A stretch of 64,000 bases of DNA from a virus. How positions within the stretch are numbered: the stretch's first letter is position 1; each line of letters opens with the position of its first letter. The DNA lies in the IMG/VR virus record IMGVR_UViG_3300026680_000001, positions 7,089 to 71,088 of that record; one strand, written 5' to 3'. The position numbers and the translations under genes are program-made. Below are positions 2,744-61,930 of the stretch, piece by piece. The notes below the pieces were generated by a model. It did no database searches and had not been told where the DNA came from. It saw nothing but the letters and a program-made list of their open reading frames with translations.

Positions 2744-2983
2744 ATGGGCTGCCAGGAATGTCCCGGGCCAGGAACCTGGCGTGTCGATCGCCGGGGAGAC
2801 GCGGTGGTCTCGTGGTCCTGTTCGGCGCACCTGGCGCGTGTCTGTGCGGATTTACAGCGGGACTGGGAAGTAACACAGCTTGTGGTCACCCACGCGCGTC
2901 CAAGCTTGCGGAGTGGGCAGGGATCGGGGCCAGGCTTGACGAGATCGCTGAGGGGTTCTAGCCGTGTCCCGCACGCTGGCTGA
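2744..2983 (+). CDS. small Cys-rich hypothetical protein (CxxC...C...C); alternative frame 2758..2961 possible
   Basis: 79-aa ORF between G-T and tape measure; two alternative overlapping small ORFs, neither with clear RBS. Confidence 0.25.
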   Translation: MGCQECPGPGTWRVDRRGDAVVSWSCSAHLARVCADLQRDWEVTQLVVTHARPSLRSGQGSGPGLTRSLRGSSRVPHAG

Positions 2984-5900
2984 CGCCTTCGTCGCGATCC
3001 GACCTCGCGTCCACGAGTCCGCCGTCCAGGACGCCAAGGCCGCGGGGGAGCTGACTGGCCGTGCGTTCGGAGACGCCGCGTCCAAGAACGCGGCGTCAGC
3101 CGGGGAACGAACCGGGAGAGAGTTCGGCGCCGCTGCCGTTACCGGTGCCAAGAAGGCCGCCGACCGGGACGCCAAGGGTATGGGCGTGACGATCGGGGAG
3201 AAGATGGCCCTGGGAGTCGGCGCGGGGCTCTCCGTTGGCCTCCCACTGGTCGGGTCGGCGGCAGCCGTGGGATTGGTGGCTTCCATGGCCGCGGTCGGGG
3301 TCGCCATCGCGGCGCAGAACGAGCAGGTCAAGGCCGGGTTTTCGGTACTCGCGCAGCAGGTCACGACCGGGATGACCACCGCCGCCGCACCGCTGGTCCC
3401 GTTCCTGCTCGACGTGGCCGGTCAGGCGAGTACCGCGTTCGCCACGTTCCTTCCGGCCGTGACCGGTGCGTTCACCGCGCTCGGACCGGCGTTACAGGCG
3501 GGGCTCGCACCGTTCATGGCCGGGCTGACGCAGGCGTTCGTGAGCCTCGCGGAGGCCACCGCCAGATCAGCACCAATGATCACTGACATCATGACCCGGC
3601 TAGGCCAGCTACTGCCCACGGTGGTGGGCCTGGTCGTGGCACTCATCGAGCTTGGTGGTAACGCCATCGACCCGCTACTGGCCGTGATCAACGCACTGGT
3701 CGGTGGTCTCACCACGGTGATTGGGTGGATGGACCGGTACCAAGTCGTCACCATCGCCGTGGCTGCGGCACTGGCAGCGCTTGTGACGGTATCCAAGGTG
3801 CACGCCGCCGTGCTCACCGTCCAGGCCGCCGGGGGGCTCGCCAAGTACCTGGCGGGGCTGAATCTGGTGAAGGCGGCCACCCTGATCTGGACCGGTGTGC
3901 AGTGGGCGTTGAACTTCGCGTTGACCGCCAACCCGATCGGGCTCATCATCGTCGGGATCGCCGCGCTGGTCGCGGGCGTGATCCTGGCTTGGCGGCACAG
4001 CCAGACGTTCCGAACCGTGGTCGTGGGTGCCTGGGACGCGATCAAGGTCGCTGCCCAGTTCATGTGGTCGGTCATCAAAGTCGTGTTCGGGCTCTGGCTG
4101 GACTGCTACAAGCTCATCGGTGGGGCCGCGCTGTGGCTGTGGCGGAACGCTATCCTGCCGGCGTTCGAGGGCGTGGTCACCGCCGTCACGGCCGTGGGGA
4201 GTGCGTTCGTCTGGCTATGGCAGAACATCATCGCACCCGCCGTGTCAGCCATCGCGTCGCAGGTGACCTGGTTGTGGCGCAACATCATCGAGCCGGCCTG
4301 GACCGGGATCTCGTTCATCATCCAGGTCGTCTGGACCGTGATCCAGATCGTGTTCGGACTCTGGATGATTTACTACAAGCTCATCGGCGAGACGGCGCTG
4401 TGGCTGTGGCGGCACGGGGTACAGCCAGCGTTCGAGGGCGTTGCCGCCGTCGTGCTCTGGGCCTGGGACGCCGTCATTCGACCCACGTTCGACGCGTTCG
4501 CCGCCGTCGTCGTCTGGGTCGTGAACCAGGTCATCCGACCGGTCATGGACGCGCTGGTGTGGTTCTGGCGGAACGCCGTGGTCCCTGCCGCGTTGTTCTT
4601 GCGGGACATGGTCCGGGCCGCGATCGAGGCCATGGGACAGGCCATCCAGTTCGTCTCGGAACGGGTCATCCGACCGACCATGGACGCGCTGGTGTGGTTC
4701 TGGCGGAACGCCGTGGTCCCTGCCGCGTTGTTCTTGCGGGACATGGTCCGGGCCGCCATCGAGGCCATGGGTCAGGCCATTCAGTTCACCTGGGACCACA
4801 CTATTCGACCAGTCATGGACGCGATCGCGTTTGTGATCCGGGATGTGGTACCCACGGCGTTCCGGGTCGGAGTCGACGCCATCGCCCGAGCCTGGGACTT
4901 GCTTCGGGAAGCGGCCAAGGTACCGGTCAGGTTCGTGGTCGACGTGGTCATGAACCCCCTGATCCGGGGATACAACAAGATCGCCTCGTCGTTCGGGGTG
5001 AACACCGTCGCTGAGATCGGTCTCCCGTTCGTTACCGGTGGTATCTATCCCGGGTATTCCCCTGGCCGAGACATCGGACTGGCCGCTGTTTCCGGCTATG
5101 AGGCGATCATGCGTCCGGAGTGGACACGGGCCGTGGGGCCGGCGTATGTCCACGGGGCCAACGCCGCCGCGAGAACCGGTGGAGTCCCCGGGGTCCGTGC
5201 CTGGCTGGCTGGGGGGTTCGCTGACGGTGGCATCGTCGGTGACCTGCTCGGGTGGGTCACCGATCCCGTGGGGCGGGCCAGGGACGCGCTGGGTGGGCCT
5301 TTGAACCGGCTCAGGGAGCTTTCCAACACCCCGTTCAGTCAGATGATCGCCGCCATGCCACGGCGGATCTACGAGGCCGCCGTGGCGAAGGTGGAGTCGA
5401 TCGTCAAGGGGTTCGGGTCCAGTCTTGGATTTGGTGGTGGTGGTGTTGAGCGGTGGCGGGGTGTCGCGCTCTCGGCGCTGAGTTTGGCAGGTGCGCCAGC
5501 GTCGTGGATCGGATCATTGTTGCGCCGGATGAACCAGGAGTCCGGTGGAAATCCCATGGCGATCAACTTGTGGGACTCGAACGCGATGCGTGGCACCCCT
5601 TCGAAGGGCCTCATGCAGGTGATCCAACCCACGTTCAATGCCTACGCCGGCCCGTTACGGGATCGAGGGATCTGGGACCCCTTGGCGAACATCTTCGCCG
5701 CGATCCGGTACACGATCGCTCGTTACGGCTCCGGCCCCGCCGGGTGGGACCGGCCCGGTGGTTACGCTCGTGGCGGCATCGTGGGTGACGTGCGGTCATT
5801 GTCCATGGATGGTGGGTTCGGGGTTCTGCGGCCGGGCCCGAACATGGTGTTCAACGGGACCGGGCGGGATGAACCGATCACCTCCGGCCCCGTCGAGGTC

Positions 5901-6023
5901 CGGGTCTACATCGGCGACCGGGAGTTGACCGACATCACCCGTGTCGAGGTCGAACGGATCAACCGGCAGGTGGCCCGTCAACTGGCCGGGAGCCGGACCA
6001 CTGGGAACTACGACATACTATGA
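2964..6023 (+). CDS. tail tape measure protein with C-terminal lytic transglycosylase (SLT-like) domain
   Basis: 1019 aa; GTG start with GAGGGG RBS; N-terminal TM/helical repeats; periodic W-rich repeats (WLWRNAILPAFEGV etc.); C-terminal NQESGGNP...GLMQV...Y motif typical of SLT/lysozyme-like domain. Confidence 0.85.
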   Translation: MSRTLADAFVAIRPRVHESAVQDAKAAGELTGRAFGDAASKNAASAGERTGREFGAAAVTGAKKAADRDAKGMGVTIGEKMALGVGAGLSVGLPLVGSAAAVGLVASMAAVGVAIAAQNEQVKAGFSVLAQQVTTGMTTAAAPLVPFLLDVAGQASTAFATFLPAVTGAFTALGPALQAGLAPFMAGLTQAFVSLAEATARSAPMITDIMTRLGQLLPTVVGLVVALIELGGNAIDPLLAVINALVGGLTTVIGWMDRYQVVTIAVAAALAALVTVSKVHAAVLTVQAAGGLAKYLAGLNLVKAATLIWTGVQWALNFALTANPIGLIIVGIAALVAGVILAWRHSQTFRTVVVGAWDAIKVAAQFMWSVIKVVFGLWLDCYKLIGGAALWLWRNAILPAFEGVVTAVTAVGSAFVWLWQNIIAPAVSAIASQVTWLWRNIIEPAWTGISFIIQVVWTVIQIVFGLWMIYYKLIGETALWLWRHGVQPAFEGVAAVVLWAWDAVIRPTFDAFAAVVVWVVNQVIRPVMDALVWFWRNAVVPAALFLRDMVRAAIEAMGQAIQFVSERVIRPTMDALVWFWRNAVVPAALFLRDMVRAAIEAMGQAIQFTWDHTIRPVMDAIAFVIRDVVPTAFRVGVDAIARAWDLLREAAKVPVRFVVDVVMNPLIRGYNKIASSFGVNTVAEIGLPFVTGGIYPGYSPGRDIGLAAVSGYEAIMRPEWTRAVGPAYVHGANAAARTGGVPGVRAWLAGGFADGGIVGDLLGWVTDPVGRARDALGGPLNRLRELSNTPFSQMIAAMPRRIYEAAVAKVESIVKGFGSSLGFGGGGVERWRGVALSALSLAGAPASWIGSLLRRMNQESGGNPMAINLWDSNAMRGTPSKGLMQVIQPTFNAYAGPLRDRGIWDPLANIFAAIRYTIARYGSGPAGWDRPGGYARGGIVGDVRSLSMDGGFGVLRPGPNMVFNGTGRDEPITSGPVEVRVYIGDRELTDITRVEVERINRQVARQLAGSRTTGNYDIL
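4530..4799. repeat. near-perfect 2 x 135-bp tandem duplication inside tape measure gene (45-aa unit IRPxMDALVWFWRNAVVPAALFLRDMVRAAIEAMGQAIQF), with a partial third copy starting at 4800
   Basis: Copies at 4530-4664 and 4665-4799 differ at only a few positions; in-frame. Confidence 0.85.
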
Positions 6024-6026
6024 GCT

Positions 6027-7100
6027 ATGACGCGACTGATATTGGTCAGGGCCGAAGGTAGCTCCACGATCTGGTTGTCGAATGGCCTGCAACGGCGCCG
6101 GGTAGCCGATGATGAGGTTCGACTGCTCCAACGACTGTTCACCACCACCGAGGTGGTCACGGTCACCGACCTACGGGTCCTCGGTGTACCCATCCCCGAA
6201 CCGCTGCGGCTCGCCCGGACTGTGGACGACCCGACGATCTGGCTTGGGGACGGAATCCTCCGCAGAGTCGTCGACCTGTTAGAGCTTTCCGAGGTCCAGC
6301 GCTGGCTCGCCCGGTCGCAGAACGACACCACGGTTCGGACCTTCGCCGACATCCGGGTCCTGGGCGCCGCGTTCCCTCCCGATGAGGACGTGCCCGAGCC
6401 GGAACCGCCCGCCGGGACCTGCGTCAGTCCATGGTTCACCACGGCTGAGCGCAATGGCGGTATCGCGTTCGGCGATTACTACATTCACAACAACATCTGG
6501 AACCCGGAGGCCCCGGCGAACCAGTCATTGCATGTCTGCTCTCCTGCGTCCTGGTTCGTGAGGTCCGGACCGTACTCGGGTACGGCGGTGAAGACGTTTC
6601 CGAATGTGCACCGGGACATGCCGGACGCCTTCGGGGCCGGCGTGCCATGGTCGGACTACTCCACAGTGTCAGCCCGGTTCGCCAGTTCCGTGGATGCCGA
6701 ACACCAGACGGGCGGGATCTGGAACGTGGCTTTCGACATTTGGCTGAACGGGGTTGGCTGGGGCGGTGGCAGCACTGAGGTCATGATCTGGACAGAGAAC
6801 CGGGGACAGCGCCCGGCTGGTGAACGACTCTCGGCCGACGTGGCCATCGGCGGCACAATCTGGCAACAATGGCACCTCCGCGAGGGGGATGCCAACGTGG
6901 TTACCTTTGTCGCGCTGACACCCGTCAAGGCCGGGACCGTGGACATCAAGGCACTGGTCGACTTCGGTATCCAGCGCGGGCTGATTCCGCAGGGGCCGAC
7001 CGTTCACCAGCTCGGCTACGGGATCGAAATCTGCGACACCGCCGGCACCGTCCTGCGCTATGACGTGACCGACTTCGAGCTGACCATGACGAAGGCATGA
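6027..7100 (+). CDS. tail-associated protein with C-terminal GH12-like glycoside hydrolase domain and internally duplicated N-terminal domain
   Basis: 357 aa directly after tape measure; motifs GDYYIHNNIWNP, AFDIWLNG, STEVMIWTENRG (E-x-MIW nucleophile motif of GH12), GYGIEICDTAG (candidate acid/base Glu); N-term has two TIWL...RVLG repeats. Confidence 0.55.
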   Translation: MTRLILVRAEGSSTIWLSNGLQRRRVADDEVRLLQRLFTTTEVVTVTDLRVLGVPIPEPLRLARTVDDPTIWLGDGILRRVVDLLELSEVQRWLARSQNDTTVRTFADIRVLGAAFPPDEDVPEPEPPAGTCVSPWFTTAERNGGIAFGDYYIHNNIWNPEAPANQSLHVCSPASWFVRSGPYSGTAVKTFPNVHRDMPDAFGAGVPWSDYSTVSARFASSVDAEHQTGGIWNVAFDIWLNGVGWGGGSTEVMIWTENRGQRPAGERLSADVAIGGTIWQQWHLREGDANVVTFVALTPVKAGTVDIKALVDFGIQRGLIPQGPTVHQLGYGIEICDTAGTVLRYDVTDFELTMTKA

Positions 7101-24916: not shown

Positions 24917-25495
24917 ATGAGCACGTCAACGTACTTGACTGTCGAGATGTTAACCAAGGCAAGCGCCTGCGCCAACCAAGTGAGCCGCTTCCACCAGAAA
25001 TACCCGGCGGGTGTCGACATCACTATTGACCTATGCCGTGACAGTTCCGCGGACTGGGACTGGGACTGGGCAGCAAAACAACTACTGCCGCAGTCCGCGT
25101 GGGCTGGATACGAGCGGGTCAAGCAGCCGGCTTGGGCCGAGTACGCGCGGGTCGAGCAGTCGGCTTGGGCCGAGTACGCGCGGGTCCGGCAGCCCTCGCG
25201 AGCCAAGTACGAACGGGTCTGGCGGTCCGCGCGGGCCGAGTACGCGCGGGTCGAGCAGTCGGCTTGGGCCGAGTACGCGCGGGCCGAGTACGCGCGGGCC
25301 GAGTACGAGCAGGCCCGGCAGTCTGCGTCGGCCGAGTATGAGCGGGTCTGGCAGCCCGCGCGGGCCGAGTACGAGCGGGTCCGGCAGTCCGCGCGGGCCG
25401 AGTACGAGCGGGTCCGGCAGTCCGCGCGGGCCGAGTACGAGCAAGCATGTGCCGTAGCGTTCGCAAATGCTGTCTTGGCGTATGGCCTACGCTGA
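24917..25495 (+). CDS. tandem-repeat protein (11-aa AEYARV(E/R)QSAW repeats)
   Basis: 192 aa; GGAG RBS 9 nt upstream; about 10 copies of an 11-residue helical repeat. Confidence 0.5.
   Translation: MSTSTYLTVEMLTKASACANQVSRFHQKYPAGVDITIDLCRDSSADWDWDWAAKQLLPQSAWAGYERVKQPAWAEYARVEQSAWAEYARVRQPSRAKYERVWRSARAEYARVEQSAWAEYARAEYARAEYEQARQSASAEYERVWQPARAEYERVRQSARAEYERVRQSARAEYEQACAVAFANAVLAYGLR
25094..25446. repeat. 33-bp tandem repeat array (about 10 units of GCTTGGGCCGAGTACGCGCGGGTCGAGCAGTCG), coding
   Basis: Visible periodicity of 33 bp with unit variants including truncated 24-bp units. Confidence 0.85.
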
Positions 25496-30704: not shown

Positions 30705-31415
30705 ATGCAATACCTGGGTGGTAAGGCCAGGGCGGGACTTTGGGTGGCCAAAGCACTACTTGCGGACACCCCGAGACGGAGTACGTACCTGGAACCATTT
30801 GTCGGGGCTGGTTGGGTTTTGTGGCGGGTCGCCCCTGGTTTCCGGCGCGTGGAGGCAGGTGACTACCATCAGGACCTTTGTCTGCTCTGGGATGCCATTC
30901 TGAACGGATGGGAGCCACCTCAGGAGGTCACACGAGCAGAATACACGCAACTCCGCGACGCCGAACCAAGCGCCCTTCGGGCCTTCGCTGGTTTCGGCCT
31001 GTCCTTTGGGGGCAAGTGGTTCGGTGGATACGCAAGCAATGATCGTGGTGACGACTACTGTAGGGCGGCCCGCAGAGGACTGCTCCGTAAGGCAACCGGC
31101 ATGGTCGGGGTAAAAGTTGAGCACCGTGATTACCGATCATGGTCACCAGGTTCGGACCACCTTGTCTACTGCGATCCGCCCTACCAAGGCACTACGCAGT
31201 ACCGAGGGGGCAATGTTGATGGATTTGACCACGACGAGTTCTGGGACGTGATGACCCGGTGGTCCACTTCAGGCGCTCAAGTGTACGTGTCCGAGTACAC
31301 AGCTCCTACGAACCTCGCGGAGGTGGTCTGGGAACAACCTGTAAAGGGGTCGCTGGAGCGACGGTCCAACAACCGGACTGTGATAGAACGCTTGTACCGG
31401 GTCACGTCGCACTAA
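30705..31415 (+). CDS. Dam-family N6-adenine DNA methyltransferase (D12 class)
   Basis: Motif I YLEPFVGAGWVLW and motif IV DPPY (VYCDPPYQG) in alpha-class order. Confidence 0.8.
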   Translation: MQYLGGKARAGLWVAKALLADTPRRSTYLEPFVGAGWVLWRVAPGFRRVEAGDYHQDLCLLWDAILNGWEPPQEVTRAEYTQLRDAEPSALRAFAGFGLSFGGKWFGGYASNDRGDDYCRAARRGLLRKATGMVGVKVEHRDYRSWSPGSDHLVYCDPPYQGTTQYRGGNVDGFDHDEFWDVMTRWSTSGAQVYVSEYTAPTNLAEVVWEQPVKGSLERRSNNRTVIERLYRVTSH

Positions 31416-43759: not shown

Positions 43760-44544
43760 ACCGACCTTGCAGCGTCAGGTGGTTCAGGGTCACCCGACTG
43801 GCCACAGAGCCAGACTTGGACAGCACCGGGGGTTCCAGCGGCGACATACTCCCACCGGGGATCGTCAGGCCCCGGTTCCCAGTCGTCCGGTGGGTCGAGT
43901 GGCGGGTCCGGTGCTGGACCTCCACACGGGTAGTTCTGATCAACCCAATGCAAGGAACCCCAGTCAGCCCAGATCTCACGGACAGTCAACGGTCGGATAT
44001 GACGTTCCCAGACACGAACATCATTCCACTGGAGACCCCGTGCGCTCGCGTACGCATCAGCGGCAGCATTCTGTGACTGTGACGTGGTCAGCGTCGAGGT
44101 CCAGCCTGGCATGACCCACTCCGCACGTCGCACACAGCCGGGTGGATCGCATCGGTGACCACCGTGCCAGCAGTAACCGTCTACGTGGTCATCGTAGGGC
44201 TCGTCGAATGGGTGAGTCATGAGCTGGAACGTTACCTTGCAGTGTTGATGGCCCAGCGGACGCACGAGCTGGCCAACCTCGGACAGCATCACCCAGCTTC
44301 CAAGTGTCCGCGTCCCGCAGCACAACTCCGTAACCGCCTTCACTGACCCTCCTGCTGCCAGTTGGGACGCTAGCAACCCATCACTGTCACACATCACTGG
44401 CTTGTTCTCCCGTCCCGCGACCAGAAGCGTCTGGTAGGGACAGTAGCAGTCAAGGAGGTCCATGAGCAACGGTCGCGCCGTGTTACGGTAGCCGGGAGTT
44501 TTCCTTGGCCCTGGGCCACAGAGTTGGAGGAGATCCGGTGACAA
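43756..44544 (-). CDS. hypothetical Cys/His-rich protein (first gene of leftward operon; true start may be internal)
   Basis: 262-aa ORF divergent from the excisionase-like gene. Confidence 0.35.
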   Translation of the reverse strand: MSPDLLQLCGPGPRKTPGYRNTARPLLMDLLDCYCPYQTLLVAGRENKPVMCDSDGLLASQLAAGGSVKAVTELCCGTRTLGSWVMLSEVGQLVRPLGHQHCKVTFQLMTHPFDEPYDDHVDGYCWHGGHRCDPPGCVRRAEWVMPGWTSTLTTSQSQNAAADAYASARGLQWNDVRVWERHIRPLTVREIWADWGSLHWVDQNYPCGGPAPDPPLDPPDDWEPGPDDPRWEYVAAGTPGAVQVWLCGQSGDPEPPDAARSV

Positions 44545-44768
44545 GTGTCAACGACAAGCTGGTCGCCGGGGGAGAGGAACTCCTCACCCGGGCACAGGCT
44601 GCAGACTATCTCAAGGTTTCGCTCCGAACGATCGACCGGCTCGCCCGGTCAGGGGATCTGACAAAGCTCTATGTGACCCGATGGTCACCTCGGATCAGGC
44701 AGGGCGACCTTGAGGGGCTCCTGAGAGCTGTGAGACCAGCAAGACCCAACCAACCGATCGTCGAGTGA
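44538..44768 (+). CDS. excisionase/AlpA-like HTH DNA-binding protein
   Basis: GTG 44538 with GGAGGA RBS; LTRAQAADYLKVSLRTIDRLARSGDL HTH typical of excisionase-family regulators. Confidence 0.5.
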   Translation: MTSVNDKLVAGGEELLTRAQAADYLKVSLRTIDRLARSGDLTKLYVTRWSPRIRQGDLEGLLRAVRPARPNQPIVE

Positions 44769-44794: not shown

Positions 44795-47700
44795 ATGCCC
44801 AACACAGCAGAGCCGTCACTGTCCCCTGAACACGCCGAGCTGCTTCGTCATCACGCCGTGGACTTGGGGGTAGCCGCCGCCGCAGGGGTCCGCTCGGTCC
44901 TGACCCGGGAGGACCTTCCCGAGCCACTTCGTGAGATCGGCTGGATAGCCGACCTGGTTCCCGGGATCGTGTACGTGTGGCGTCACCAAGGGATCACCGA
45001 GTACCAGTTCGCCACTGACGACCGGTCAGACGACCGGCCCAAGTACGCCTTTCGGCCCGGGGCCACACCGGTCCCCAACCAGGTCCGTGAGACCGGCGAC
45101 GGTGGACCGGTGCTCCTTGTGGAGGGCACCAAGCAGCAGTTGGCCGCCGCGTCCTGGGTTGACCAATCATGGTCCGTCTACGGGATCGCCGGGTGTTGGA
45201 GCTGGACCACTGCGGACCTGTCGTTCGTGTCCGACCGTAAAGTGGTGGTCATCTACGACGGGGACGTGACCATCAACCGTCACGTCTGGGACGCGGGAGA
45301 GCGGCTCGCCGAGACACTCCACCTCTACGGTGCTGATATGGTCACCTTCGTCAGGGTTCCGACCACGGGGTCCGACGGCCTCGACGACCTGTTGGGCCGG
45401 ATACCACCCACGCAGCGTGGCTCAGCACTCAAGCGGTTGCTCGACAAGGCCGGCAAGTTGCCCAAGCGGCCGCCACGCCGGCCGGCTGAGTCCGGCAACG
45501 CCTACATCGACCCGGCCAACGGCGGGTTCCAGGTCCGGCGACTGGCCGCAGCGGTCTACGAGCGGTGGCCGATGGCCCTGACCCGGGAGCGCCGGCCGGC
45601 GGTGTACCAGCGCGGCACCTACCGGATGGACGGCACGGCGCTGGTCTCGGCGGTGACCCAGCTCATGGGTGAGCAGTACCGGCCAGCACAGCTGTCGGCC
45701 GTGACCGATGTCCTGGTCGGCACCCTGTACGACGAGGGGATCTTTTTACCGGATCATCTCGACAAACCATTGCTGAACTGCCGGAACGGAATGCTGGATC
45801 TGGAAACCGGAACGCTCTACCCACACGCGCCCAGCTATCTGTCCAGTCTCCAGATCCCCCTTTGCTGGACTCCTGATGCCGAGGCGCCCGTCTACAACGA
45901 ATGGCTGGACCAGGTCCTCGGGGACCAGGCCGAGGATCTGGAAGAAGTCACGGCGTCAATGTTGGACCCGTCCCGAACACCGTCCAAGGCAGTGTTTTTG
46001 TTCGGTCCGTCGAAGTCTGGTAAGTCAACGTACCTACGCCTGATGCGGGCTGTTGCCGGCTCGGCCAATGTCTCGGCTGTGGGACTTCACCAACTGGTCG
46101 TCAACCGGTTCATGGCCGCGATGGTGTACGGCATGATGCTGAACGCCCACGCCGACCTGTCCGCCGCGCATGTCGAGGATGTGTCACTGTTCAAGATGAT
46201 GATCGGTGATGACCTCATCCCAGCCGATCGAAAGTACGGCGGCACGTTCAACTTCGTCAACCAGGCCCTCTTTGCGTTCTCCGCCAATGACCCACCCACG
46301 GTCGGAGAATCCTCGCGGGCCTACGCCGAACGCATCAAGCCGTTCAAGTTCCCGTTCTCGTTCGCCGGTCGGGAGGACCCCACGATCGAGGACCACATCA
46401 TGGCCCATGAACTGGAGGGGGTCCTGGTGCGCTGGGTGGCCGCCTGGCAGCGCCGCCAGCAACGGGGCAGCTGGCACCCCACGGCGCCCGAGGTCCAGCA
46501 CGAGTTCGAGGTGCGCTCGGACCGGGTGCGCCAATGGGTTGACGAGGAAATGATCGTATGGCCGGTCAACGGGACCTACCAGAACCGGGACGAGTGCACC
46601 GTCCCCAGGGACCTGGCCCGTGCGTTCAACCGGTGGGCCGAGGACAACGCCGGCAGCAAGATGGGCGAACGGAAGATCATCGATCGGCTTCGGACCATGC
46701 CCGACGTGGCTGAGGTCCGGCAGCGAGAGACACGGGCGAGGGCACTCAACCTCACCAAGCGACCCCCCGGTGAGAGCGGGGGCAGTTTGCTCGGGCAAAC
46801 TGCCCCCCGATCCGAGCAAACTGCCCACGAATCAGGCCAGGTCACGCCGGATGGGGCAGAAGGGGCAGTTTCGGCCCACCCTACCTATACACTATGTAAA
46901 AAACATGGCCCGGAAGGTCAGGTATTAGAACAAGTAGAAAATACAGAGACCATAGGTAGGGGTGGGCCGAAACTGCCCCTTCTGCCCACGCCCGATCCCG
47001 GCGAACCCGTTAACGATGTTGAAACTGCCCCCGGCCAACGTGTTGATGATGTTGAACCTGCTGCCTCCGCCGACCAACATGACGATCTTGGTCCCGCCCT
47101 GATCGGCCCTGAGTTCACCGCACCCGTTGGGTCAGTCCTTGACTTCGACCTTGAGACCTACGATGCTGGAGACATCTGGCACAGAGGACCAGACTTTGTG
47201 TTCGCCGCCGGCTATCGGGGATCTCAAGATCCCGAGGCACTCCTTACCACTGACATCGATGCCCTGACCCACCAGCTCGCCGCTCCCGGAACGACCGTTC
47301 GTGGACATAACGTCCTGAACTTTGATCTCGTCGCCCTCGCCAGGTATCACGGCCTCGATCAACTTTCGTTGACTTGGCGTGGTGGGGTGGTCGACACCAA
47401 GCTCTTGGCGTTCCTCGCGGACCCACCACCTGCTCGAATGGGATCGGGCGAGTGCGAGAAGCACTACAAGCTCGATGCTGTTGGGCAGCGACTGTTCGGG
47501 GTCGGCAAGCAGGGCACCTTCGCTGACTTGCTTGCCAAGCATAACGGTGACCGGCTGTCACTCCGCCACGACCCTGAATTCGTCGAATATCTCCGGCAGG
47601 ACGTTGCGCTCACGGGTCGGCTTGCGCGGCACTTTGGTACATGGCCATATGCTGAGCGAGAGCATCGAGTGCTTGCTGTGCTATCCCAGATGAGTTTGAA

Positions 47701-48877
47701 TGGATTCCGGGTCGATACCGGACTGCTCAATCAAAGGTATGCCGAGGGTGAGGCGACCAAGGCGCGACTTCAGGAACGACTCGTCACCGAGTATGGGATG
47801 CCAACCGACACCGCGGCCGGGAAACCGGCAAAGTCACCATGGACCACCGCGAAGGGTAAGGCCGCGATCAGCGCCGCGTTCCAGGCCGCGGGTGGACCTC
47901 CGTTGCCGATAAGTCCTAAGGGAAACACCCTTACGAGCAAAACCGTGATGGAAGCACTCGTCGTGCGGTACGAGGATGAGGTACCCGAGGTCGCTCAGCT
48001 CGCTCGGGTCGTGATGGAGTTGCAGGGTGTGCGGTCAATTTATGGAACGGTGTTGGACCATCTCGTGGGTGACCGGGTTCACCCGAAGTTCGACGCCCGT
48101 CAGGCGTCCGGGCGTATCTCCACCATCAACCCCGGCCTGACCGTGATCGGCAAACGGGACGGCCGGGTCCGTGAACGGGAAATTTTCTTACCCGAAGAGG
48201 GTCACGTGATCATCACCGCTGACCTGGCCCAGTGTGACGCGCGTGTCGTGGCGGCACTCTCCCAGGACCACGCGTACATGGACCTGTTCGAGCCTGACGG
48301 GTCCGGGCTCGACCTGTGGTCCCGGTTCGCACTGCGGTTGTTCGGGACCGTGGACAAGCGGGAGTGGGCCAAGTGGATCGGGCACGGGTCCAACTACGGC
48401 CAGGGCGCCGCAGCCATCTCCACAACGTACGGGGTTCCCCGTGACGAGGTGGATCGGTACCTGGCTGAGCGGGCCGAGCAGTTCCCGCGGCTCGCGCGGT
48501 GGACCAACGAGGTCCGGGAACGGGCACGCGCCGGGGACCTGTTGGACAACGGGTGGGGTCGGCTGATGCGCCCCGACCCGCATCGCTACTACACGCAGGG
48601 GCCGGCCCTGATGGGTCAGGGCGGTACCCGTGACGTGATGGCGGAGGGCATGCTTCGGCTCGTGACCGCCGTACCCGAGGTGGCCCCGTTGCTGCGGGCA
48701 ACCGTTCACGACGAGCTGGTCCTATCCGTCCCCGTGGACTGGGCCGACGATGTGGAACGGGTGCTGGTCGAGTGCATGTCGTTCGAGTGGTGCCCACCAG
48801 GCGGCAGCCGACCTATCAAGATCATGGCAGACGTGGGCCAGCGTGGTCAGACCTGGGCGGGGGCATACGCGAAATGA
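44795..48877 (+). CDS. fused replicase: TOPRIM primase-like N-terminus, SF3/D5-like helicase P-loop, family A DNA polymerase C-terminus
   Basis: VLLVEGTKQQ + VIYDGD (TOPRIM E and DxD); Walker A FLFGPSKSGKST; PolA-like motifs IITADLAQCDARV, YGQGAAAIS, VHDELVL; 1360 aa. Confidence 0.8.
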   Translation: MPNTAEPSLSPEHAELLRHHAVDLGVAAAAGVRSVLTREDLPEPLREIGWIADLVPGIVYVWRHQGITEYQFATDDRSDDRPKYAFRPGATPVPNQVRETGDGGPVLLVEGTKQQLAAASWVDQSWSVYGIAGCWSWTTADLSFVSDRKVVVIYDGDVTINRHVWDAGERLAETLHLYGADMVTFVRVPTTGSDGLDDLLGRIPPTQRGSALKRLLDKAGKLPKRPPRRPAESGNAYIDPANGGFQVRRLAAAVYERWPMALTRERRPAVYQRGTYRMDGTALVSAVTQLMGEQYRPAQLSAVTDVLVGTLYDEGIFLPDHLDKPLLNCRNGMLDLETGTLYPHAPSYLSSLQIPLCWTPDAEAPVYNEWLDQVLGDQAEDLEEVTASMLDPSRTPSKAVFLFGPSKSGKSTYLRLMRAVAGSANVSAVGLHQLVVNRFMAAMVYGMMLNAHADLSAAHVEDVSLFKMMIGDDLIPADRKYGGTFNFVNQALFAFSANDPPTVGESSRAYAERIKPFKFPFSFAGREDPTIEDHIMAHELEGVLVRWVAAWQRRQQRGSWHPTAPEVQHEFEVRSDRVRQWVDEEMIVWPVNGTYQNRDECTVPRDLARAFNRWAEDNAGSKMGERKIIDRLRTMPDVAEVRQRETRARALNLTKRPPGESGGSLLGQTAPRSEQTAHESGQVTPDGAEGAVSAHPTYTLCKKHGPEGQVLEQVENTETIGRGGPKLPLLPTPDPGEPVNDVETAPGQRVDDVEPAASADQHDDLGPALIGPEFTAPVGSVLDFDLETYDAGDIWHRGPDFVFAAGYRGSQDPEALLTTDIDALTHQLAAPGTTVRGHNVLNFDLVALARYHGLDQLSLTWRGGVVDTKLLAFLADPPPARMGSGECEKHYKLDAVGQRLFGVGKQGTFADLLAKHNGDRLSLRHDPEFVEYLRQDVALTGRLARHFGTWPYAEREHRVLAVLSQMSLNGFRVDTGLLNQRYAEGEATKARLQERLVTEYGMPTDTAAGKPAKSPWTTAKGKAAISAAFQAAGGPPLPISPKGNTLTSKTVMEALVVRYEDEVPEVAQLARVVMELQGVRSIYGTVLDHLVGDRVHPKFDARQASGRISTINPGLTVIGKRDGRVREREIFLPEEGHVIITADLAQCDARVVAALSQDHAYMDLFEPDGSGLDLWSRFALRLFGTVDKREWAKWIGHGSNYGQGAAAISTTYGVPRDEVDRYLAERAEQFPRLARWTNEVRERARAGDLLDNGWGRLMRPDPHRYYTQGPALMGQGGTRDVMAEGMLRLVTAVPEVAPLLRATVHDELVLSVPVDWADDVERVLVECMSFEWCPPGGSRPIKIMADVGQRGQTWAGAYAK
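46777..47032. other. putative origin of replication embedded in replicase ORF: six copies of GGGCAGTTT/AAACTGCCC, a 12-bp-arm palindrome, and an about 36-bp near-perfect inverted repeat flanking a 62-bp AT-rich spacer
   Basis: Palindrome 46777-46806; inverted-repeat arms 46854-46889 and 46952-46987; AT-rich core 46890-46951; falls in a low-complexity inter-domain linker of the protein. Confidence 0.5.
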
Positions 48878-60319: not shown

Positions 60320-61930
60320 ATGAGTAGCCTCGTCCGGTACCCGGTACCGCAAGCGCCCACGGTTCGATGGCCGCAGTCGCGGATCATCGCCCCGCCGCAG
60401 GTTCCCGGTGGTTCCACCATCGCGGTGTTTCAATCGAGCTGGGCCACCACCACCACCCCCAAAACGGTGGTCGTCCCAGGGTGTCTCATCGGGGATCACT
60501 TGCTTGTCCTCGGTGGTGGGGACATGTCCACCGGGAACACCGTTGCCAGCGTTACCACCACGACCTCAGCCGGACCGGGCACCACTGGCTCCTGGACCGA
60601 ACCCGCCGAGGTCCTCACCGGTACCACCGATGACTGGCTGACCAGCGCTATCGCCACTGTCACCGGGGATGGGGACATCACCGTTCAGATGGCCCGCACC
60701 GTCGGCACCGGGGCACCCGGCGAGTGGGGTTTCTGGGTGCTCCGGGCCCGTGACAGTGCCGGGTTCGGTGCCCCGGTCACTCAGCTCACCAGTGGCTCCG
60801 GCCAGGTTGTGTCCGTCACCACCACAGCGGACTCCGTGGTGGCGTACCTGTCGGTGGACTGGGATGCCGCGTCTGTCGGTACCTTCACGCCTGGTGGTGC
60901 GGTGGAGGTGGAACGCGCGGCCATTGGTGGGGTGTACACAGTCCATGCCGCCTACTGGCCTTCCCAGGCCGCGGGCACCCGCGACTATGGGCATACCGGT
61001 GGTGGCGGTACCAAGTACCGCATCGTCGCAGTCGAGGTTCTCGGCCCATCCAGCGGAGTCAGCGGTGCCGGCAACATCGCACAGCGCAGTAGCACTGCGA
61101 GTGCCGCTACCAAATCGGTGGCCGGGGCCGGTACCGCACAGGCACGAACGACTTCGACCGTAACCGCCAGTAAGGCGGCTACCGGTGCCGCAATCACGAT
61201 GGGGCGGGTCAATACAGCCGCCGTGGGGCGCAAACTGTCCGCCAGCCTTGCCGGTCCAGCTCAACGTATGTCGACAAGCACCATTGCCGCCAAACAGGCT
61301 GCCGGGACGGCCACATCGGTCACCCATGTCATCACGAGGGCGGGATTCACCTCACCGGGGCCCAGCGGCGCCACGTCGGTTCCTCAACACGCCGTTACCG
61401 GCGCCGTGGGTCTCAAGCGGGTAGCCACACCGGCCAGTGCCTCAACACGTCCCAGCGTCGTGGCCAGCGGCCGCAAACAGGTCTCAGCGGGAGCACTGGC
61501 CGTCCAGCACATCACAACCAGAGCAACGTTCACACCCGCCGGTCCAGTGGGTACCACGGCAATCGTTCAGCGCTCCATTGTCGTCGCCGTTGGTGCCAAA
61601 CGGATCGTCGCGCTAACCGGTGCCGTGACGCATACGTACACCATGACGGGTGGCCGCAAGCAGGCCATGGTAACCGGCCCCGTAACCGGGCACAGTGTCA
61701 CTGCCACGACCGGGGCCAAGCTGACCGCAGGCGGAACTAGTGTGGCCCAGCGTACGGTGACCGTCGCCTCGATGTTCGTTGTTTCCCCATACGTACCGGC
61801 CCTCGTAGGTGTGGATGCCAATGGGTCGGTCGGTGGTGTGGACGCCAGTGGGTCGGTCGGTGGTGTGGGTGCCAACGGGTCGGTCGGTGGTGTGGACGCC
61901 GATGCCACCGTGGCGGGTAACTTGGGGTGA
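60320..61930 (+). CDS. fibre-like protein, paralog family member 4, with C-terminal Gly-rich 9-aa tandem repeats
   Basis: 536 aa; GDHLLVLGGG...W pattern; three 27-bp repeats encoding (A/D)NGSVGGVD at 61807-61890. Confidence 0.45.
   Translation: MSSLVRYPVPQAPTVRWPQSRIIAPPQVPGGSTIAVFQSSWATTTTPKTVVVPGCLIGDHLLVLGGGDMSTGNTVASVTTTTSAGPGTTGSWTEPAEVLTGTTDDWLTSAIATVTGDGDITVQMARTVGTGAPGEWGFWVLRARDSAGFGAPVTQLTSGSGQVVSVTTTADSVVAYLSVDWDAASVGTFTPGGAVEVERAAIGGVYTVHAAYWPSQAAGTRDYGHTGGGGTKYRIVAVEVLGPSSGVSGAGNIAQRSSTASAATKSVAGAGTAQARTTSTVTASKAATGAAITMGRVNTAAVGRKLSASLAGPAQRMSTSTIAAKQAAGTATSVTHVITRAGFTSPGPSGATSVPQHAVTGAVGLKRVATPASASTRPSVVASGRKQVSAGALAVQHITTRATFTPAGPVGTTAIVQRSIVVAVGAKRIVALTGAVTHTYTMTGGRKQAMVTGPVTGHSVTATTGAKLTAGGTSVAQRTVTVASMFVVSPYVPALVGVDANGSVGGVDASGSVGGVGANGSVGGVDADATVAGNLG

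Follow-up and report, generated by a model that had tools for sequence, protein, structure and literature searches.

A probable replication origin translated within the linker of a phage primase-helicase-polymerase gene

The origin of the Staphylococcus aureus pathogenicity islands (SaPI) lies immediately downstream of rep and comprises 6-12 iterons with an AT-rich centre, at least two opposed iterons standing on each side (PMC9371898). These iterons are recognised by a winged helix at the C-terminus of a self-loading superfamily 3 (SF3) helicase, and in SaPI5 this initiator, PriRep5, is a primase-helicase fusion (PMC9371898). In the alpha protein of phage P4, a Toprim primase is followed by an SF3 helicase, and short repeats are bound by a winged-helix origin-binding domain at the C-terminus; in the plasmid pRN1 a small DNA-binding gene stands upstream of the replicase (both PMC4234260). 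In N15, bidirectional replication starts within repA, a multifunctional replicase gene of the primase/helicase type (PMC2847241). Here we describe a repeat cluster at 46778-47061 of a 64,000-nucleotide stretch of viral DNA (positions 7,089 to 71,088 of the IMG/VR record IMGVR_UViG_3300026680_000001; hereafter the window). The cluster lies in frame within the linker of a primase-helicase-winged-helix-PolA replicase gene and, judged from its own sequence and that of its relatives, is probably a phage origin of replication of the self-loading SF3 helicase-initiator type. This reading is favoured because the layout matches that of SaPI origins, which were defined by experiment, because it resembles the origin of pRN1, and because lambda and N15 provide known cases of an origin within an initiator gene.

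Repeats at a domain junction

The element is built from a short word, GGGCAGTTT/AAACTGCCC, that is matched exactly six times within 46780-47030 (46780+, 46797-, 46818-, 46863+, 46970-, 47022-) and has no copy elsewhere in the 64-kb window. By chance 0.29 copies of GGGCAGTTT would be expected per window, and none of 100 dinucleotide shuffles gave six, the shuffle maximum being two. The copies and the sequences that connect them are arranged as follows:

46778..46807, no strand assigned: outer palindrome of two head-to-head iterons (GGGGGCAGTTTGC / GCAAACTGCCCCC), from repeat and shuffle analysis
46818..46826, minus strand: third iteron, within the second unit of a 21-nt tandem repeat (46792-46833)
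46853..46888, plus strand: left arm of the large inverted repeat, with the tandem iterons GGGGCAGAA and GGGGCAGTTT 9 bp apart and a GC-rich clamp, CGGCCCACCC-TACCTAT
46889..46951, no strand assigned: AT-rich core, a candidate DNA-unwinding element, from the GC scan
46952..46988, minus strand: right arm of the large inverted repeat, mirroring the left arm, with a bulged G at 46959
46997..47061, minus strand: 33-nt tandem repeat in two copies, with the sixth exact iteron (47022-47030) and a degenerate copy

Copies 1 and 2 form the perfect palindrome GGGGGCAGTTTGC-tcgg-GCAAACTGCCCCC (arms 46778-46790 and 46795-46807, 13/13). Copies 4 and 5 lie inside a perfect inverted repeat of 28/28 nt (46854-46881 / 46960-46987), which grows to 35/36 nt (46854-46888 / 46952-46987) when one bulged G is admitted. 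Two variant words, GGGCAGAA at 46854-46861 and its mirror TTCTGCCC at 46980-46987, stand 9 bp from the inner exact copies, each of which has the variant copy GGGGCAGAA before it at exactly this distance. Two iterons per side are opposed in this way, at 46853 and 46862 on the plus strand and at 46970 and 46980 on the minus strand, around a core of GC 0.385. When folded as single-stranded DNA, the inverted repeat reaches -50.3 kcal/mol vs -19.2 +/- 2.9 for shuffles (z = -10.9), and the resulting stem-loop, with arms of 35/36 nt and a loop of 63 nt, starts ~95 nt past the winged helix. The segment between the perfect arms, 46882-46959, has the lowest GC of all 78-nt windows of the 64 kb, and the lowest-GC window of 62 nt likewise begins at 46882. 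Over the full span of 256 nt the composition is mildly low, at 0.58 vs 0.64.

Much of this had been noticed in a preliminary description of the same DNA, made from its letters alone. The six copies within 256 bp, the inverted repeat of about 36 bp and the 62-bp AT-rich spacer that it reported are all recovered, and its perfect palindrome proves to be one base longer than claimed. Its statement of low local GC is borne out as well, the spacer being the GC minimum of the window.

The large inverted repeat is also bracketed by two direct 9-mers, ACGCCGGAT (46844-46852) and ACGCCCGAT (46988-46996), which are identical at 8/9 positions and look like a target-site duplication. This look is probably a coincidence, because no other copy of the element was found.

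Which parts of the protein does the cluster separate? The replicase is the product of one open reading frame (ORF), which can be divided as follows:

44795..48877, plus strand: replicase ORF of 1360 amino acids (aa), with primase, SF3 helicase, winged helix, repeat-bearing linker and family-A DNA polymerase (ORF list, Pfam, PHROG)
44972..45484, plus strand: Toprim-like primase region, aa ~60-230 (DUF3854 in homologs, invariant residues)
45761..46561, plus strand: P4-family SF3 helicase core, with D5_N at aa 323-375, the DUF5906 P-loop at aa 402-505 and TIGR01613 at aa 326-589
46580..46759, plus strand: winged helix, candidate origin-binding domain, aa ~596-655 (fold search)
47132..48868, plus strand: family-A DNA polymerase part, aa ~780-1358, from a DFDLET exonuclease-like motif onwards (Pfam, PHROG)

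Pfam identifies D5_N, DUF5906 and DNA_pol_A in this protein, and PHROG assigns aa 73-654 to a DNA primase and aa 780-1358 to a DNA polymerase. The helicase core scores 116.5 bits with the NCBIfam model TIGR01613 ('phage/plasmid primase, P4 family'; cut-off 108.7) and conserves the Walker A motif GPSKSGKST, and in a tblastn search of a plasmid collection the helicase/winged-helix part of the replicase reaches ORF904 of pRN1 (E 6e-11). For the N-terminus, DUF3854 stays below threshold in the replicase of the window (18.7 bits vs a cut-off of 23), but an entry for it exists for many homologs; E110/G111 and D155/D157 do not vary among 30 homologs. Pfam found no prim-pol domain in the replicase, whose N-terminus is Toprim-like (DUF3854).

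The domain that precedes the repeats was recognised by a fold search, in which it matches 1ka8 (P4 alpha); PDB and Pfam, searched with the sequence of this region, gave no match. At the level of the fold, the last folded domain before the repeats thus appears to be a winged helix like that with which P4 alpha binds its origin repeats. The first iteron begins 21 nt past the end of this block. The cluster as a whole is placed past the last conserved primase-helicase block (~aa 655) and before the first PolA block (~aa 780), where it is translated in frame as aa 660-746 of a non-conserved stretch of ~125 aa. The preliminary description was therefore right to place it in frame between the helicase and polymerase domains, within ORF 44795-48877.

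The same junction in homologous loci

Fused homologs of the replicase (1200-1500 aa, 35-52% identity) number more than 100 in soil and rhizosphere metagenomes. For a comparative analysis, 80 loci were anchored on the end of the conserved winged-helix block, and 72 junctions were scored, 63 of them non-redundant. Inverted repeats with a score of at least 14, a spacer of 30-160 nt and a distance of at most 450 nt from the winged-helix end were counted, with 500-nt windows of the same loci as controls. Such a repeat is present at the junction in 49/72 loci vs 14/1076 control windows (Mann-Whitney p = 6e-32), and in 44/63 when redundancy is removed. An unbiased scan for any 9-mer occurring at least four times in 300 nt finds clusters right past the anchor in ~20 loci and ~10 elsewhere in ~700 kb.

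The resemblance extends to the inner build of the repeats. The two-word construction of the left arm is also present in homologs, whose arms nearly always consist of two tandem words, for example GTGGCAGAA-GTGGCAGTT, GGTGTGGGT-GGTGTGGGT and GTGACAGTT-GTGACA; among the strong arms with a clear tandem sub-repeat, all (14/14) have the 9-nt period. The spacers of the homologs are 60-130 nt long and GC-poor, extra word copies often lie outside the arms, and the polarity is conserved, the left arm having its G-rich strand on top in 34/38 loci. The two-plus-two layout recurs in homologs, and the position past the winged helix is shared by most homologous loci. The words themselves are lineage-specific, with a GGCAG class, a GTGTGGG class, a GTGACAG class and others, and these classes coincide with clades of the winged-helix sequence. 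On these sequence features, the element of the window is a typical member of the set. The earlier proposal of an origin withstands the tests applied to it and is strengthened considerably by this comparison: the same design of iterons, AT core and inverted iterons is found in most homologous replicase loci, whether it is translated or not.

A short A-tract, GAAAA(A)CA, was seen by eye in the left half of many spacers (window 46895-46905; loci L008, L011, L012, L038, L040, L067 and L069), sometimes matched by a mirrored counterpart, GTGTTTT(T)C, in the right half. It may mark an inner symmetric motif, or act as a signal for priming or unwinding.

Is the sequence of the junction kept for the sake of the DNA or of the peptide? 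The element is present inside 22/26 fused genes, and it is also found in the 3' tail of stand-alone primase genes, across the primase stop codon (L064, L065) or entirely past the stop (L063, L073). Across loci, word pairs of the GGCAG type are translated in all three phases and give unrelated peptides such as GAEGAVS, GSSGSSG and GQVGQFQ. The GC content of third codon positions (GC3) in fused homologs is 0.84 in the primase-helicase flank and 0.83 in the polymerase flank vs 0.55 in the junction, a drop observed in 22/22; in the window the flanks have 0.81 and 0.73, the junction 0.48 and the inverted repeat 0.38. The variable settings, the three reading phases and the fall in GC3 together indicate that the reading frame is kept open while its sequence is shaped by the DNA (or RNA) and not by the peptide. 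This makes the junction a clear example of overlapping codes, in which translatable sequence is under constraint at the level of DNA and codon bias collapses in every fused homolog.

Among the non-redundant loci of the range L005-L084, primase and polymerase are fused in 26 and separate in 33, and the two arrangements are interleaved inside the same iteron classes. This pattern suggests that the two genes have been fused or split repeatedly, exactly at the origin-like element.

A possible mechanism and its alternatives

We infer binding by the winged helix, melting, double loading and origin activity, and propose the following mechanism. The winged helix (aa ~596-655), encoded immediately upstream, would recognise the 9-bp words GGGGCAG(T/A)(T/A)(T/A), the outer copies increasing local occupancy. 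The paired inverted words would flank the AT-rich core and direct its opening, and this core of 63-78 nt would then melt; extrusion of the 35-nt arms as a cruciform and transcription of the gene may assist it. Priming would fall to the Toprim-like domain and extension to the PolA part of the same polypeptide.

Several points weigh against an origin at this place. The phage is represented by a metagenome contig only, the protein that binds the repeats may be another one, such as the product of the upstream HTH_17 gene, and a hairpin of 35 bp would form in the mRNA too. For the separation of the iteron classes, the winged helix has no advantage over the helicase (ratio 1.17 vs 1.16), so the match between words and winged helix is inseparable from shared ancestry; domain-specific covariation, although consistent with cognate binding, was dropped as uninformative. 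Strand composition is of no help either. A GC-skew inflection had been proposed as a check, and the cumulative skew of the window peaks at 31,364 and has a flat valley at 44.5-48 kb, with its minimum at 47,367, near the element. Gene orientation switches at both turning points, the valley coinciding with the switch at 44.6 kb; the skew in this genome therefore follows the direction of transcription. At four-fold sites the skew is higher upstream than downstream of the junction in 20/24 fused homologs, a trend opposite to the expectation for a simple bidirectional origin. The check thus yields no independent support, and GC skew was set aside as evidence for an origin.

Finally, ~30% of the homologous loci lack the element at this position, including the cultured Streptomyces phages of the genus Woodruffvirus. 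A junction of normal GC and free of repeats, the finding that the preliminary description would have taken as counter-evidence, is confined to this Streptomyces branch; most other loci carry the element. The Woodruffvirus-type relatives have a big nested cluster of iterons and inverted repeats elsewhere, in the non-coding interval that directly precedes the primase gene:

phiSAJS1 (L003, Streptomyces phage), 1212-1574: upstream cluster
Xkcd426 (L002), 1297-1598: upstream cluster
L043, 3980-4258: upstream cluster

These clusters contain TTCCCGCGAA in at least six copies and in both orientations, and arms of 37 nt (95% identity), 42 nt (83%) and 55 nt (76%). They may represent a relocated origin.

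What else could the element be? A bolder proposal, doubtful at present, is that it is dual-coded and serves as an origin and at the same time as the hinge at which primase-helicase and polymerase genes are repeatedly fused and split. The fused ORF of 4.1 kb would then be a complete replicon with origin, origin-binding domain, helicase, primase and polymerase, whose nascent protein would load in cis on its own coding DNA, and the mRNA hairpin might tune the ratio of full-length to helicase-only protein. If true, an origin and all enzymes in a single ORF would make an unusually compact replicon, useful for vectors of high-GC Gram-positive bacteria and for self-replicating DNA in vitro.

Very unlikely, in our estimate, is a non-origin role in which the repeats bind another protein, as an HTH_17 operator, in autoregulation or as a centromere-like partition site. 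Operators and parS sites typically contain inverted repeated words, the centromere site of N15 also lies within repA (PMC2847241), and a gene for a candidate binder is found directly upstream:

44505..44768, plus strand: small HTH_17 gene directly upstream of the replicase, candidate for an alternative binder or regulator, placed like orf56 of pRN1 (Pfam HTH_17, E 2.7e-6)

An operator or centromere would, however, leave the AT-rich core (the GC minimum of the 64 kb) and the two-plus-two inverted words without a role. The element moreover tracks the end of the winged-helix coding sequence and not a promoter, and no partition genes were found among the ten neighbouring ORFs scanned.

We give little credence to an RNA-based role, in which the hairpin would control expression of the polymerase half through RNase III-type processing, ribosome pausing or drop-off, or attenuation, and would in this way set the ratio of the two activities. 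The great stability of the hairpin (z = -10.9), its position exactly at the domain or gene boundary in fused and separate genes alike, and its conserved polarity relative to transcription would suit such a role. Yet a hairpin has no need of arms made of two tandem 9-nt words, nor of extra word copies outside it in both orientations, and the layout fits experimentally defined DNA origins. No promoter or T-tract terminator was found in the AT core, and in Rfam the best match, to a generic hairpin (miRNA) family, has 31.5 bits vs a gathering score of 190, with nothing near threshold.

A functionless miniature inverted-repeat mobile element or a recombination scar of the primase-polymerase gene fusion is extremely improbable: terminal inverted repeats around an AT-rich interior, the near-identical flanking 9-mers ACGCCGGAT / ACGCCCGAT and the alternation of fused and separate arrangements among relatives would fit, but the word is confined to a single site of the window and also lies outside the inverted repeat, and the element keeps the same position in homologs of only 35-52% identity, where its words co-diverge and its polarity is conserved, which argues for vertical inheritance under selection and not for insertion. 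The mobile element was rejected on its single copy in the window, on flanking 9-mers that agree at 8/9 positions and on the absence of arm copies, with 0 copies of a 28-mer arm in 185,579 genomes and 0 of a 20-mer in 2.9 million viral contigs.

An origin thus remains the probable reading. The gene is set in a phage replication module that also includes an SF2 helicase on the opposite strand, the HTH_17 gene upstream and, downstream, a dCTP deaminase; genes for tail and head are found in other parts of the window. An identical replicase protein is encoded on a metagenome contig of 71,097 nt, with the element ~55% along it, and the closest other protein is only 48-52% identical. No near DNA match was found among 50,697 phage records, and a peptide-pattern search of IMG/VR gave no match. 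The nearest cultured relatives, Streptomyces Woodruffvirus phages with ~39% protein identity, encode primase and Pol I separately; in the Actinoplanes phage phiAsp2 primase and polymerase are fused too. The host is presumably an actinobacterium.

Other tandem repeats of the window lie within ORFs other than the replicase:

25090-25442: 33-nt tandem repeat, 10.8 copies (GGCCGAGTA word x10), inside ORF 24917-25495
4429-4823: tandem repeats of 135 nt (~2 copies, 88-95% identity) and 57 nt, inside a 1019-aa ORF, 2964-6023
61808-61904: 27-nt tandem repeat, 3.6 copies, toward the 3' end of ORF 60320-61930

The first keeps the reading frame through its period of 11 codons and probably encodes a repetitive, coiled-coil-like protein segment. 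ORF 2964-6023 looks like a tape-measure gene by size and position.

Comparison with described origins

The preliminary description had likened the locus to lambdoid O genes. In the lambda ori, an AT-rich region lies to one side of four direct iterons of ~19 bp, and the host DnaB is recruited by O through P. Shared with the window are an origin placed in frame in an inter-domain linker of the initiator gene, iterons beside an AT-rich stretch, and an iteron-binding domain encoded just upstream, and to this extent the comparison stands. It fails for the initiator and for the iteron layout: the 9-bp words of the window form inverted pairs on both sides of the AT core, and its protein has its own SF3 helicase, primase and polymerase and no Phage_rep_O domain in a Pfam search. 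The likeness to N15 is that initiation takes place within a replicase gene; N15 relies on the host polymerase.

With P4 alpha, the replicase of the window shares the order of domains, the 1ka8 fold match and the P4 family model TIGR01613. P4 iterons are octamers, and P4 needs a second cis element, crr, kilobases from ori. In the 64-kb window there is no second, crr-like word cluster, ~7 kb of the contig lying outside the searched window; P4 alpha, furthermore, has no polymerase.

In pRN1 from Sulfolobus, the origin is a stem-loop of ~100 bp that lies 54 bp downstream of a primase-SF3-winged-helix replicase gene, and an analogous stem-loop is found 3' of the replicase of Bordetella phage BIP-1. 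ORF904 combines an SF3 helicase with a winged helix at its C-terminus and is homologous in this part to the protein of the window (E 6e-11), and the window, too, has a large stem-loop just 3' of the winged-helix coding sequence and a small HTH_17 gene upstream. The differences are that pRN1 has an archaeo-eukaryotic prim-pol and reportedly no iterons, whereas the primase region of the window is Toprim-like, the arms of its stem-loop consist of iterons and more iterons lie outside. In the plasmid collection, a search for annotated origins beside homologs returned only distant P4-family primases, pRN1 included.

The SaPI origins share with the window an SF3 initiator, iterons directly past the winged-helix coding sequence, an AT centre and two-plus-two opposed iterons. 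Their iterons, however, are penta- or hexanucleotides in non-coding DNA past the stop codon, whereas the words of the window are ~9 bp long, strictly paired 9 bp apart and joined in a long inverted repeat that could form a cruciform and is translated within a PolA fusion. No sequence similarity is detectable between the winged helix of the window and that of SaPI Rep, and the hosts differ, that of the window phage being presumably an actinobacterium.

The kind of element is therefore one already known. What appears to be new is a broad, undescribed family of phage replicase loci defined by it; words strictly paired at 9 bp in a cruciform-capable inverted repeat, which unite SaPI-like and pRN1-like features; and translation of the element as the linker of a primase-helicase-polymerase fusion in ~40% of lineages, that of the window included. 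No prior description of such an arrangement in actinophages was found in the searchable literature, which does not prove that none exists. A testable origin would thereby be available for a large family of uncultured, actinophage-like soil phages without a known one.

The class that the element matches closely is that of the SaPI / pRN1 / P4 origins, which stand beside a self-loading SF3 helicase whose C-terminus is a winged helix; lambda O is only a loose analogy. The rule that the origin lies right past the winged helix of a self-loading SF3 helicase would then hold in these phages as it does in staphylococcal islands and archaeal plasmids.

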